Source: Octopus vulgaris
Lineage: Eukaryota
Assembly (NCBI GenBank): GCA_951406725.2
Contig: OX597842.1
Coordinates: forward strand, 7,068,001-7,132,000
Direction: 5' to 3'
DNA length: 64,000 nt
The translations under genes were made by a program, and so were the position numbers. How positions within the stretch are numbered: the stretch's first letter is position 1; each line of letters opens with the position of its first letter. The notes below the pieces were generated by a model that saw nothing but the letters and a program-made list of their open reading frames with translations, did not search any database and was not told the origin of the DNA. Below, piece after piece: positions 9,461-62,147 of the stretch.

Positions 9461-9496
9461 CCCTGTTGAAGAGCATAGGCTCAAAACATCAAAGAC
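9461..9496 (+). ncRNA. Degenerate minimal hammerhead motif (CUGUnGA family)
   Basis: CTGTTGA-A-GAGC ATAG GCTC-AAAAC-ATC-AAAG, homologous to 62112-62147, with G12 and G16.2 mutated in a CpG-decay pattern. Confidence 0.45.
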
Positions 9497-10117
9497 TTTT
9501 CCATTCTTCCCAAGTGTTAAACTTTACACTTGCTTGTTGTTCCCTTACTTGCCTTCCTCTTTTGTTTTCTGTAAATTTGGACTGTATGTATGTATGTATG
9601 TGTGTGTGTGTGTGCATGCGTGCGTGTGTACGTACGTACGTGCACACATACACATCTTATATTAGTAGATGTCTTTCACTCACACAACATTTCCCTCATG
9701 ACACAGATAAAAAAGCCAGGCTGGAAAAGGGGGTAAGTGACATCATCTACAAATACAGAAGGATTGCCATTTGATCTACCACTGCAGTTATATTTTGTTT
9801 TTTTACAAATTCCCCATCTAAATATAGGCATTTAGCACAAGCAATATTTCACTGACTTCAGTCATGTCAGCTTCCTTGCTGAACGATGTCAACAGGGTCT
9901 GCTTGTCATTTAGTGATGTTATAACACTTAACTAGTTTTTCCTTAATTCTGATTTAGGTGGATAACTATGCAAAATACTTTTGTGATTTCTTTCGTAGTG
10001 AGATTTCAAGTTCCTGGCCTTGTATTGAATAGGTGAAATATGGAAAATAAGGAACAAAGGTACATTATTTACATTATTTACAACTGATGGATATTTGTCC
10101 TCATCTTGTTTGTTGTT

Positions 10118-10163
10118 AACACAGCGTTTCAGCTGATATACCCTCCAGCCTTCATCAGGTGTC
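10118..10163 (-). ncRNA. Minimal type-I hammerhead ribozyme motif (cleavage triplet mutated to GCU)
   Basis: Minus strand reads GACAC CTGATGA A GGCTG..CAGCT GAAAC GCT GTGTT; helix I is GACAC/GTGTT. Confidence 0.65.
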
Positions 10164-10399
10164 TTGGGGAAATTTCAAACCTGGGTTCTCATTCCTAAGG
10201 TATTCTTCAATGTTGCTGTTGCTGTTGTTATTATTATTATTATTATTATTATTATTATTATTATTATTATTCAGGTCACTGCCTGGAATTGAACTCAGAA
10301 TTTTGGGGTTAAGAGTGAGGGCTACTAACCCCAGGATTTGATCCAGGCAGTGACCTGAATAATAACAACAACAACAACAACAACAACATCGAAAAATTC

Positions 10400-10440
10400 C
10401 TGATGAAGACTGGATGGTATATCAGCCGAAACGTTGTGTT
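10400..10440 (+). ncRNA. Minimal hammerhead motif, same family, 5' strand of helix I lost
   Basis: CTGATGA A GACTG..CAGCC GAAAC GTT GTGTT. Confidence 0.6.
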
Positions 10441-10924
10441 AACAACAAACAAGACGAGGACAAATATCCATCAAATGTAATGTTCCTTATTTTCCATATT
10501 TCACCTATTCAATACAAAGCCAGGAACTTGAAATCTCACTACGAAAGAAATCACAAAAGTATTTTGCATAGTATTTTGTCAAACGAGATGTCAAGCGGTG
10601 ATGGGGAGACAAACACAGGCACGCACACATCATAGATATGTACATATATATATGTGCGATGAACTTCTTTCAGTTTCCGTCTACCAAATCCACTGACAAG
10701 GCTACAGTAGAAAACACTTGCCCAAGGTGCCATACAGTGGGATGAATGGGACTGAACCCAGAACCATATGGTTGGGAAGCAAGCTTCTTACCATACAACA
10801 ATATATATATATATATATATATATCATAGTTAATCCAAACATGAACAAGCAAGAAGATGCAACAACACGAGGACATGGAATAAGTACAGTGTTATTGGAC
10901 GTTCAGGAAAGGAAAAGAAAGAGG

Positions 10925-10960
10925 ATTTCACATTTTGAGCAGAGCTCTTCGTCAGAAATA
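10925..10960 (-). ncRNA. Degenerate minimal hammerhead within a short non-autonomous PLE-like repeat (~10830-11020)
   Basis: Minus strand reads ATTT CTGACGA A GAGC TCT GCTC AAAAT GTG AAAT; homologous to 49583-49617. Confidence 0.55.
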
Positions 10961-11644
10961 TAGAAAAAGTCCAAAGAAGGGAAGACGGAGAAAGAAAATC
11001 GCCAACAATACACACACACGGGTGTCAAAAGTAGCACCTAATTTCTGTTGATATGTATAACTTCCAAATTGGGAGATACATTTCACTCCTAATTCTTGTT
11101 CTACGGGTTTGGGATATCAAAATGATAAACGGTCCAGATTCAGTAACTGTCAGTAACAACATACAAAACAACCAGGAAAAGCATGATTGCCAGAAACAGG
11201 CGCTACTTTTGAATCACCCTGTATGTGTGTGTGTGTGTATATATATATATATATATATATATATGTGTGTGTGTGTGTGTGTGTGTGTGTGTGTGTGTTT
11301 GAGGTGGAGGTCCATCAACAAGTTAAACAACATATATTATCGACCTAATTTTATCAATATTGTTTTAAATAGATAATACGACAATGGCCATTATGAAAAG
11401 CTAAGTGTGACAAGTAGCAAAAGATAGCAGAAGCGATATCAAATTAATTTTCCTATTTGCTACATTGAAGTGCAACACAACACACAGTAGTCTACCTTGA
11501 AAAAGAAAAGTGAAAGTTAACACAGAATATGATAAGGACTTAGCATTATAATTTATATGTATCTACATGATTAGAATTTGAATGGGAAATGAATAGAGTC
11601 ATAGAGTACAAACCTAAAATAAAAGGAATAGAATTTTTTTTTTT

Positions 11645-59984: not shown

Positions 59985-60378
59985 AGGAGTGGCTGTGTGG
60001 TAAGTAGCTTGCCTACCAACCACATGGTTCCGAGTTCAGTCCCACTGCGTGGCACCTTGGGCAAGTGTCTTCTACTATAGCCTCGGGCCGACCAAAGCCT
60101 TGTGAATGGATTTGGTAGATGGAAACTGAAAGAGGTCCATCATATATATGTATATGTATGTTTGTGTCTCTGTGTTTGTCCCCCCCCCCCCCACCAACAT
60201 CGCTTGACAACCGTTGCTGGTGTGTTTATGTCCCTGTAACTTAGAGGTTTGGCAAAAGAGACCGATAGAATAAGTACTAGGCTTACAAAGAATAAGTCCT
60301 GGGGTCGAGTTGCTCGACTAAAGGCAGTGCTCCAGCATGGCCACAGTCAAATGACTGAAACAAGTAAAAGAGTAAAAA
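59985..60378 (+). mobile_element. SINE family A copy
   Basis: Consensus match. Confidence 0.9.
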
Positions 60379-60419
60379 GTGTATGGCTTGGCTGTATGGT
60401 AAGAAGCTTCCATTGTGGA

Positions 60420-60750
60420 ATACAGGTCTTCTTGAGTAGAGCAAAGTGCCAGGTATCTCAGTCCTTTGTCATTTTGTTGGAAAGGTTCAACATCCTGAGG
60501 TGTCTTTTAGTTCTTTGTCCTGTGTCTTCCTGATCTCCCTCTTCCACGTGTTACATCTACTTTGAGAGCTCAGTGCTCTTTTTGTGAGCTCTCAGCATCC
60601 ATCCGCATCATATGACCAAACCAGTGCGGTCTTCTCTCTTGCTCACTGCATCTAATTCCTCTTATGCCTAACTTCTCTCTCAATACACTAAACTCCGTAG
60701 AACGTGTACACTTACATTACACATCCAGCAGAGCATATTGGCCTCACTCC
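60420..60750 (-). mobile_element. Old RTE LINE fragment
   Basis: Homologous to 55260-55600 (..RRPHWFGHMMRM..). Confidence 0.65.
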
Positions 60751-60832
60751 TCTTAATATACTTGTTGATGAAATATTATGGCTGCATAATGAAATACGGT
60801 ATCCCTACAAGCAATTAAGATAAACATATAAG

Positions 60833-61485
60833 CGGTGAGCTGGCAGAATCGTTAGCACACTGGGCGAAATGCTCAGCGGTATTTCATCTGCCGTTATGTT
60901 CTGAGTTCAAATTCTGCCGAGGTCAACTTTGCTTTTCATCCTTTCGGGGTCGATTAAATAAGTACCAGTTACGCACTGGGGTCCATATAATCGATTTAAT
61001 CCGTTTGTCTGTCCTTGTTTGTCCTCTCTGTGTTTAGCCCCTTGTGGGTAGTAAAGAAATAGGTATTTTGTCTGCTGTTACGTTCTGAGTTTAAATTCCG
61101 CTGAGGTTGACATTTCCTTTCATTCTTTCAGGGTCGATAAATTAAGTACCAGTTATGCACTGATGTCAATGTAATTGACTTAATCCCTTTGTCTGTCCTT
61201 GTTTGTCCCCTCTATGTTTAGCCCCTTGTGGGCAATAAAGAAATAAGATAAAGATATATATATGCATAAAGGCAGCAAGTTGGCAGAATTTGCTGGGCAA
61301 AATGCTTAGCAGCAATTCATCTGTCATAATGTTCTGAGTTCAAATTCCACCGAGGTCGACTTAGCCTTTCATCCCTTTTGGTACTGATAAAATGAGTACC
61401 AGTCAAGCACTGGGGTTGATATAAACAACTAGCTCCCTCCCACCAAAAATTTCAGGCCTTGTGTCTACAGTAGAAAGGATTATTA
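60833..61485 (+). mobile_element. SINE family D dimer plus a related older copy
   Basis: Two tandem bodies with the same junction as the other arrays, then a diverged copy at 61271. Confidence 0.85.
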
Positions 61486-62111
61486 TTACCTCTGCCATAG
61501 CAAAGGCAGAGGTATTGTTTTCAGTCATGTTGGTTTGTCCATGGTCATCTCAAGAACCTCTGGATGGATTCGGATGAAACTTTCAGGGATGTTTTACTTC
61601 GTAACTGGCACAAACATTATCATCCCATTTCCATTGTACACACACACGTGCACGTGCAAACATACCTTAATTCCTCTCCAGTCTACAAATGTCCTCTGCA
61701 GTCTTGGCCCATGTCTCACTACCATGTAATTGAGCTGTTTTCATACAGGCATCATCCACCCGTGCTTTCCCCACTCTTGCCTCCCCCACCTCCCCACATC
61801 ACACCACACTATACTACACCATACAACATTACACATCACATCACAACACACCACCCATAGACCCATCCCTACATCTTTACACCTACACATACATACATAC
61901 ATACACACACACATCCAGACCACCAGCCCTCTTTCACACACACATACATACTCTCGTATACACACATGCACCTTGGTGTTGGAGGTCATCTTGACCTCGT
62001 TATTTCCCCTACTTTCTCCTTCCCGTCTGACCATTTTGTCCAAGTCAGACGCCATGATAGATCGTTAGCTACTACACACATTTTTTCTCTCTCCTTGTTT
62101 TTTCTATGTCC

Positions 62112-62147
62112 CTTTCTGTAGAAGAGCATAGGCTCGAAACGTAAAAG
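62112..62147 (+). ncRNA. Minimal hammerhead motif with A6U core variant
   Basis: CTTT CTGTAGA A GAGC ATAG GCTC GAAAC GTA^AAAG; helix I is CTTT/AAAG. Confidence 0.7.

Follow-up and report, generated by a model that had tools for sequence, protein, structure and literature searches.

Hammerhead ribozymes in a 64-kb window of the Octopus vulgaris genome probably mark 3' termini in about ten families of Penelope-like elements

The window analysed here is a stretch of 64,000 nucleotides from Octopus vulgaris (contig OX597842.1, positions 7,068,001 to 7,132,000), and all coordinates below refer to it. A sequence-only reading had listed 17 hammerhead motifs in this DNA, together with a decayed Penelope reverse transcriptase (RT). 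At each of the 17 positions there is indeed a hammerhead core or at least a relic that can be recognised as one, confirming that the motifs are real, and they fall into ten families. The RT was also borne out, on the minus strand, where tblastn aligned 6739-7893 and remnants reach to about 8640. This Hydra-clade relic of a Penelope-like element (PLE; 6739..8640) shows 39-65% identity (E 5e-26) to the Hydra-type open reading frame of locus L117, carries stops and frameshifts, and is interrupted by another repeat near 8045-8420. Its translation contains the Hydra DKT motif, which was seen in the relic only; a Pfam search did not recognise the RT relic, and neither an endonuclease nor a hammerhead end was seen within 6739..8640. 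The relic was also considered as the source of the window's families, which found no support, its match (71% over 110 nt) being to one locus only.

Hydra-clade tails lie at several places. Family A comprises a subfamily tail with a long 3' extension and an intact hammerhead (27419..27670, minus strand, core 27597), a 3' tail fragment without a core (37149..37334, minus), and the two arms of a fold-back spanning 37333-38444, the left with a near-intact core (37477..37888, minus, core 37620) and the right with an intact hammerhead of long helix II and a (TA)n end (37888..38300, plus, core 38159). Family B has an exact core with long helix II (51657..52160, plus, core 51778), family C an intact hammerhead with long helix II (20150..20319, minus, core 20273), and family I a decayed core with short helix II (45719..45927, minus, core at 45828). 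The family F tail (20324..20505, minus; the motif listed at 20409) has an exact core at 20463, and in place of the 5' arm of its helix I stands tail sequence of the same family in inverted orientation; a MITE was ruled out, as the inverted flanks of this motif consist of that tail sequence. Family G (27671..27880, plus) has the core CCGAAGA at 27718 and a helix III, ACUC-A-GAGU, matching published Hydra rows. The tail of family H, which stands apart from these six Hydra families (38496..38800, minus), has an exact core at 38647, a long helix II and a weak helix I.

The Neptune families E and E2 and the Poseidon family D account for the other features. Family E provides an intact minimal hammerhead with (TA)n on either side (49482..49727, plus, core 49587) and a tail with a decayed core (10792..11018, minus, core at 10955). 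A sister of family E with the core CCGACGA (16130..16400, plus) is about 75% alike near the ribozyme and preceded by a long CA-rich stretch resembling the family E 3' UTR, its link to E being one of similarity only. Family E2 appears as a core CUGUUGA with further decay (9461..9495, plus) and as a tail carrying the lineage core CUGUAGA at 62116 (61756..62240, plus). Family D forms an inverted pair (10040..10511) with hammerheads at 10158 (minus) and 10400 (plus), between which lie (AAT/AAC)n spacers and pieces of a tRNA-like head; one of these, the 3' half with the B-box part (10272..10310, minus), is 95% identical to head positions 37-75. A further family D fragment (50508..50595, plus, core 50518) has lost helix III and the cleavage triplet.

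A strict type I descriptor (exact CUGAnGA, GAAAC and GUH, with at least three Watson-Crick pairs in helix I and at least three pairs in helix II) matched four cores in the window, 38159(+), 49587(+), 27597(-) and 20273(-), and tolerating one core mismatch gave seven matches, the remaining ten listed motifs being relics or variants. The type I architecture (CUGAnGA / GAAA / UH core inside three helices) was found in four strict matches, and in seven if one mismatch is allowed. Across 455 dinucleotide shuffles in blocks of 300 nt, the strict count was zero in every one and the relaxed count never exceeded two. Three of the four motifs initially called complete satisfy the strict descriptor, while that at 51774, with exact core and helix I, fails at helix II, whose base has only two pairs before a U-U mismatch; conversely, 27516 had been called decayed and satisfies it. 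The apparent decay of the cores at 62112 and 9461 (A6U) and at 27711 (U4C) reflects family traits, not damage to single copies. Moreover, independent events number fewer than 17, as 10118 and 10400 make up one inverted pair and 37539 and 38154 are arms of one fold-back. Nor do the motifs form a distinct cluster, as had been claimed: the window is somewhat rich, as three patterns match exact cores in it seven times where the genome average would give 1.7 (P ~0.002), and no such match lies in the two 10-kb stretches on either side. That standard annotation does not flag the motifs held for Rfam, no hammerhead family standing among the best 150 of 224 matches in the window, although the scan is uninformative.

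Genome-wide, four exact-core patterns gave about 81,000 matches, counted for helix II of up to 70 nt and helix III free of a 5-nt insert, whereas reversed-pattern controls gave 4,549. A few percent of pattern matches are therefore noise, and from sequence the genome would hold roughly 75,000 hammerhead cores. Chance matches in AT-rich, repeat-rich DNA, to which the control matches would testify, can be regarded as refuted, since shuffles gave no strict match, genome counts exceed controls 8- to 34-fold, and all tested window motifs fall in multi-copy families.

The commonest class in the genome (36,171 matches) has a helix II of 48-70 nt with covarying stems, a form that descriptors with short spacers miss. 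Covariation, a check suggested by the earlier reading, was examined in an alignment of 19 family A sequences, against a structure derived from those same sequences. There, 93.6% of cells were paired, versus 28-47% in slid controls, and 39 double-change cells were counted, a number reached by none of 500 shuffles, showing compensatory change in the helices; pairs changed on both sides (8 of 23) did not rise above shuffles, 71 of 500 reaching that count. Unconstrained RNAalifold recovered helix II, whereas helices I and III gave way to a competing pairing. Helix III takes the form of eight different palindromes, and a hand count of the 89 readable among the first 100 listed matches gave 55 perfect palindromes and 26 with G-U wobble. 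RNAcofold predicted double-hammerhead folds for 38154 (-44.4 versus 2 x -19.5 kcal/mol) and 20194 (-52.7 versus 2 x -20.5 kcal/mol); the cofold of 49583 did not yield the hammerhead fold.

In nine of the ten families, longer genomic copies run upstream into a PLE endonuclease frame on the same strand, six of them Hydra (A, B, C, F, G, I), two Neptune (E, E2) and one Poseidon (D). In the Hydra families, a C-terminal GIY-YIG with a CxCX5C linker and without CCHH lies upstream in sense (only part of the domain in B, F and G), and RT and endonuclease share one 783-aa frame in L117, a relative of the A clade. An A-type hammerhead, identified by pattern match, lies downstream in 28 of 45 endonuclease loci, two loci being one place. 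Sense links were seen for B in 7 of 25 loci, for C in L414 and L415 (3' UTR ~2.3-2.8 kb), for F in 2 of 25 loci, for G in L244 and for I in 2 of 20. Family D was linked in 3 of 30 loci picked by hammerhead and 22 of 30 picked by upstream sequence; an RT thumb followed by GIY-YIG, with no linker zinc finger, lies upstream in sense, a layout that we take, also by its resemblance, to be Penelope/Poseidon. For family H, two partly overlapping sets of 20 and 30 loci yielded no PLE frame, and its upstream homology enters microsatellites. For Neptune, a complete RT-linker-GIY-YIG was found in L307 (family E) and sense links in 6 of 25 E2 loci, the RT, CX2-5CxxC linker and GIY-YIG with CCHH lying upstream in sense (motif names as in PMC8557442).

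The ends of the copies are in line with these links. Copies stop at fixed sites 26-225 nt beyond the cleavage site, within (TA)n or (AAT)n repeats, and have variable 5' ends, which fits 5'-truncated PLE tails. Among 30 family A copies, 15 ended +35 to +39 past the cleavage site and another nine further out, at +136 to +140, and paired 3' end sites occur also in B, C, F and G. Assembled contigs from sequencing runs contain stretches of families A and D, which shows only that these are present. Inverted upstream partners range from 1 of 30 (family E) to 14 of 20 (family G), and the six Hydra families share (TA)n insertion, an optional tail and inverted 5' partners. As nine families trace to PLE frames, the motifs are mostly 5'-truncated PLE tails and not small non-coding retrozymes. 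Overall, we consider it very probable that they are the 3' ends of about ten PLE families, nine with Hydra-, Neptune- or Poseidon-type frames, that short copies likely arise from reverse transcription starting past the ribozyme and stopping early, and that cutting is predicted in dimers only. The proposal of PLE-type hammerheads with palindromic helix III, in many unrelated families spread by PLE enzymes, thus stands; that of many small non-coding families holds for the many families, not for small and non-coding as the main reading, given coding parents for nine of ten.

It is improbable, by the same evidence, that most insertions are short non-coding, retrozyme- or SINE-like derivatives using PLE enzymes, with coding parents rare. 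Coding parents with the same tail exist in nine of ten families, copies of A, B and C have 5' ends scattered over hundreds of bases, insertions finish downstream of the cut site and not at it, and none of the 17 window motifs lies in a tandem array, as non-LTR retrozymes would. Such derivatives are favoured by family H, which has no frame link, by 5' ends in family E (including 49583) clustering ~100 nt above the core, by a six-unit tandem array of family D elsewhere in the genome (188-197 nt units) and by evenly spaced tandem cores at C1:5011305, 5011839 and 5012373, although a 5' pile-up could also come from RT stopping at a hairpin. Since only a minority of copies, the long ones, provide the links, many insertions may stem from subfamilies that are short and non-autonomous, as the pile-ups in D and E suggest. 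Such a form is plausible for three families, namely the Poseidon family with the tRNA-like head, that of 49583 and the unlinked one of 38561.

Short derivatives are also favoured by family D, in which the stop codon of the coding Poseidon is followed, 39 nt on, by a tRNA-like, promoter-type head. About three quarters of head-bearing copies (15 of 19 loci) begin at the tRNA-like 5' end, and 21-mers taken within the head are counted 9,304 and 7,795 times, as opposed to 1,813 times for one immediately upstream. A and B boxes at the defined 5' end of the short form were assigned by eye from the consensus. ARAGORN reported no tRNA in the window and, at a relaxed threshold, no consistent tRNA type for the head; a T4 run was absent from all five head-to-tail copies checked, which is compatible with polymerase III, if weakly so. 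Should polymerase III transcribe the short form, the latter would count as a SINE that depends on Penelope enzymes and has its coding parent still present. Tentatively, a Poseidon with a tRNA-derived putative polymerase III promoter behind its stop codon may give rise to a SINE, in the form of a head-ribozyme-tail RNA of 240-300 nt that Penelope enzymes copy several-fold over its parent. The dominant ribozyme of this genome may likewise be a long-armed dimeric hammerhead, and its thriving A6U lineage may provide a natural test of the need for cutting in PLE ribozymes.

Under the preferred reading of truncated PLE tails, the element's GIY-YIG endonuclease would nick an AT-rich repeat, and RT would begin at one of two internal sites beyond the hammerhead, on uncut RNA, as reported for a lizard Poseidon element in vitro (PMC11167929); early stops or template switches would give short or inverted copies. 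The single hammerhead is predicted to misfold, whereas two of them, from tandem copies or two RNAs, may pair through the palindrome into helix III, and the dimer would cut after GUH and trim read-through transcripts. The long helix II may add, beyond the core, an arm that serves structure or protein binding.

A serious minority view shares the PLE-tail origin and differs on function: the fold could be an RNA handle for a PLE protein, with cutting weak or dispensable. In the Neptune lineage E2, core A6U reached at least 6,387 exact copies versus 265 canonical ones, and slow cleavage is documented for a natural A6C variant (PMC3088659); families G and E often carry U4C (CCGAAGA in 20 of the 24 family G cores read). 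Moreover, insertion in vitro did not drop with ribozyme-dead mutants, nor were RNA ends seen at the cut site (PMC11167929). Against this, cores remain exact across dozens of families despite diverged helices, and the A6U lineage keeps its other core bases while position 7 varies, a pattern that resembles selection for a core that works. The role of PLE hammerheads is treated as an open question in PMC8557442 and PMC11167929; with exact-core families, long helix II and a fixed core change in one genome, dimer dependence, protein help and the need for cutting become testable side by side.

Hammerheads in PLEs, including a Hydra family of Octopus, are already published (PMC4209133, PMC8557442); the long helix II class, the A6U Neptune lineage and the tRNA-like head in a Poseidon family go beyond this. 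These three variants were not described in the literature found on cephalopod hammerheads, long helix II, or tRNA, SINE or polymerase III with Penelope, and the repeat annotation of Octopus vulgaris from 2026 (PMC13282606) uses neither 'ribozyme' nor 'hammerhead' in its main text; Repbase, Dfam and supplements may hold the families. Craig et al. 2021 (PMC8557442) described PLEs of the Hydra clade, among them Hydra-1_Obim from Octopus bimaculoides. The features seen here that they share are the DKT motif (here in the RT relic), a CxCX5C linker, a GIY-YIG that is C-terminal and lacks CCHH, insertion into (TA)n, a hammerhead in sense close to the 3' end whose helix III is palindromic or of 4 bp, partners that are inverted and 5'-truncated, and an optional tail. 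The Hydra-1_Obim hammerhead matches none of those in the window, 3' UTRs here span 0.3-2.8 kb, and helix II measures 57-67 nt in families A, B, C and H versus 12-26 nt in 26 Hydra rows of its File S2 (own count), in which spike-moss PLE-X1 rows, which are not Hydra, have longer ones. Cervera and de la Pena 2014 (PMC4209133) described minimal hammerheads of Neptune and Poseidon that share the short helix I, the extra base before helix II and the GAAACGU palindrome, occur mostly as single motifs from truncated PLEs in thousands per genome, and were proposed to cleave as dimers; the A6U lineage and the tRNA-like promoter inside a Poseidon 3' UTR differ from that account, and counts here exceed its richest vertebrate cases (~4,000-9,000). 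Animal non-LTR retrozymes (PMC7229834; bioRxiv 10.64898/2026.07.22.740005) likewise have type I hammerheads with a proposed PLE origin and PLE-driven spread, and the six-unit family D array fits their tandem definition, whereas the window motifs are single or inverted and mostly have coding parents. An RNA polymerase III-type promoter is joined to a hammerhead in the SINE-like Sm-alpha of Schistosoma (Sm-alpha/Sj-alpha, reviewed in PMC6765202), and a tRNA-derived promoter lies inside the terminal repeat of TRIMp3 elements (Helenus; PMC10886601); unlike both, the putative promoter of family D follows a coding Poseidon stop and is combined with PLE-type ends and a hammerhead of the minimal PLE kind. 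As regards annotation, PLE tails account for many of this genome's short repeats of 'unknown' or SINE-like type.

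The hammerhead motifs of the window are real and belong to an already known system, and what may be new lies in their variants. A core or its relic was present at all 17 sites proposed by the sequence-only reading, and its claim that chance matches are unlikely was borne out, as 455 block shuffles yielded no strict and at most two relaxed matches. In the native window, the strict descriptor (exact CUGAnGA, GAAAC and GUH, with at least three pairs in each of helices I and II) gave four matches (38159+, 49587+, 27597- and 20273-), and seven were obtained when one core mismatch was permitted. 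Among the four motifs previously called complete, those at 38154, 49583 and 20194 pass this descriptor, while 51774 has a weak helix II base although its core is exact. Moreover, the motifs at 10118 and 10400 represent one event, not two, and so do 37539 and 38154, which lie on the arms (94% alike) of a 1.1-kb fold-back at 37333-38444, where a family A tail was duplicated along with flanking repeat DNA; a third such tail, at 37149-37334, abuts it. An Rfam scan of the window placed no hammerhead family among the best 150 of its 224 matches.

The suggestion of a special cluster in this window did not hold. Exact-core patterns, each paired with a control pattern, were run on the 2.80-Gb genome (227 contigs), whose size, microsatellite load and kinds of repeat fit an octopus. 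With a helix III insert of 4 nt and a helix II spanning 48-70 nt, there were 36,171 matches (control 1,068); spans of 31-47 nt gave 7,583 (control 962) and spans of 9-30 nt gave 15,266 (control 1,140). The minimal form, GAAACGUH, accounted for 21,942 (control 1,379). Since the patterns overlap slightly and do not check helices, the genome total of about 75,000 is an estimate. Locally, three core patterns gave 7 matches against 1.7 expected, and none in the two 10-kb flanks. PMC4209133 describes minimal PLE (Penelope-like element) hammerheads as thousands of scattered, truncated copies, and PMC7229834 gives 126,247 type I motifs in axolotl. Elsewhere in the genome, at C1:5011305-5012441 and C1:13960014-14263214, tandem and inverted sets have cores 534-560 nt apart; they are candidate true retrozyme families, absent from the window.

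We then focused on the ten families carrying these motifs, for which DNA searches gave from at least 32 to at least 1,831 first-look candidates per family, followed by an upstream walk. In family D (10118, 10400, 50514), labelled Poseidon-type partly by general resemblance, the endonuclease is seen in 22 of 30 loci chosen through an upstream motif and in 3 of 30 chosen through the hammerhead. Other clade labels follow motifs given in PMC8557442. In family A (38154, 37539, 27516), the nearest copies have a Hydra-type GIY-YIG endonuclease whose end lies some 580-600 nt upstream of the core; an A-type hammerhead follows downstream in 28 of the 45 loci picked by endonuclease, and a single 783-aa frame in locus L117 holds both reverse transcriptase (RT) and endonuclease. 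In the Hydra-type ORFs of L117-L123, the RT thumb is separated from the endonuclease by long insertions rich in asparagine, which leave the frame open. The endonuclease was also found in families B (51774; in sense, 7/25 loci), F (20409; 2/25), G (27711; contiguous in L244, among 20 loci) and I (45788; 2/20). For family C (20194), none of the first 30 loci had it contiguous; after two more walks it appeared in L414 and L415, at a distance of 2.3-2.8 kb upstream. In family E (49583, 10925; 16258 is a sister, ~75% alike), locus L307 has a Neptune RT, linker and GIY-YIG, joined to the hammerhead by a CA-rich UTR of 1.3 kb, and family E2 (62112, 9461) has a Neptune endonuclease in 6/25 loci. Family H (38561) gave no endonuclease link in two partly overlapping sets (0/20 and 0/30). 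The proposed small non-coding families are reduced to, at most, short forms of D and E, plus H. Hydra PLEs with hammerheads, one Octopus family among them, are described in PMC8557442, and a PLE origin of animal retrozymes is put forward in a 2026 preprint (bioRxiv 10.64898/2026.07.22.740005).

Insertions have fixed 3' ends that lie past the cleavage site, which implies that the copied RNA was uncut there, and adjoin (TA)n. Usually there are two sites per family: +35 to +39 in 15 and +136 to +140 in 9 of the 30 copies examined for A, about +37 and +125-135 for C, +50 and +200-225 for B, +26 and +90-103 for F, and +35 and +97-109 for G; family E has a single site near +92. Inverted upstream partners occur in 10/30 (A), 3/30 (C), 6/25 (B), 1/30 (E), 15/30 (D), 11/25 (F), 14/20 (G), 2/20 (H) and 3/20 (I) loci. 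These features match both the signature of PLE tails and inversions and the internal RT start demonstrated for a lizard element (PMC11167929). The 5' ends of family E cluster about 100 nt above the core (window 49482-49500; L137-L166), at a site that resembles an initiator element and may be a start site or else a place where the RT stops.

Regarding ribozyme structure, 8 of 23 family A pairs changed on both sides, and these lie in helix I, in the two parts of helix II and in the helix III palindrome, but 71 of 500 shuffles reached that count. Among 19 relatives, 93.6% of alignment cells were paired (slid controls, 28-47%) under a model derived from the same sequences. RNAalifold alone recovered helix II but replaced helices I and III with a competing pairing. 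In a hand count over the first 100 listed matches to the long form, 89 had a readable helix III, of which 55 were perfect palindromes (eight kinds), 26 contained a G-U wobble and 8 were neither. As an 8-nt palindrome is unable to close fully on itself, this suggests that two ribozymes pair with each other. RNAcofold predicted a double-hammerhead fold for 38154 and 20194 and a related dimer for 51774, and did not give that fold for 49583. Folded as single strands, four long forms had z-scores of -2.5 to -2.9, while those of the four remaining stretches were weak.

Three variants have no describing paper in the literature searched, with Repbase, Dfam, subscription papers and several supplements outside its scope, and they are the part deserving bench tests. 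First, helix II spans 57-67 nt in families A, B, C and H, whereas it is 12-26 nt in the Hydra rows (n=26) of File S2 of Craig et al. (PMC8557442). Second, an A6U lineage has 6,387 exact CUGUAGA copies against 265 CUGAnGA in the same context, with U6 constant in 32/32 cores of retrieved loci and position 7 variable. A6U is either a tolerated variant or a sign that cutting is dispensable; a natural A6C variant cleaves slowly, according to PMC3088659. Third, a tRNA-like head begins 39 nt past the family D stop codon. It occurs in 19/30 loci, 15 of which start -17 to +16 from its first base, with three extending upstream; copies passing the head start continue for a median of ~390 nt. Counts of 21-mers (one mismatch) fall from 9,304 inside the head and 7,795 at its 5' end to 1,813 about 30 nt upstream, a drop that could be exaggerated if subfamilies differ in the motif used upstream. 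The same 5'-end pattern is expected whether polymerase III starts there or the RT stops at the hairpin present at this point. Coding copy L176 lacks the head, and in L310/L311 (G000:C30 near 17291400-17292700) it precedes six tandem family D units of 188-197 nt, joined at an (AAT)n spacer in a retrozyme-like array.

The window also holds a U2 snRNA gene or pseudogene (63653-63847, minus strand; full-length Rfam match, 157.7 bits) and an exon-like frame matching RNase_T exonuclease (4738-5055, minus; E 1.9e-7), and the repeats around the latter may lie in or near that host gene. An LTR retrotransposon integrase frame (56145-57593, minus; 482 aa; rve, H2C2) has a repeated stretch on either side of it, close to 55659-55994 and 57745-58095, which may represent the LTRs. 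A broken mariner-type transposase lies at 13432-14349 (plus; Transposase_1, E 2.4e-18). MicroRNA family matches at 12698-12896 and 20762-20936 were spurious, produced by long inverted repeats, one of which bears telomere-like TAACCC units. Finally, positions 1-4000 are a tandem satellite with a 47-nt unit and strong strand skew.
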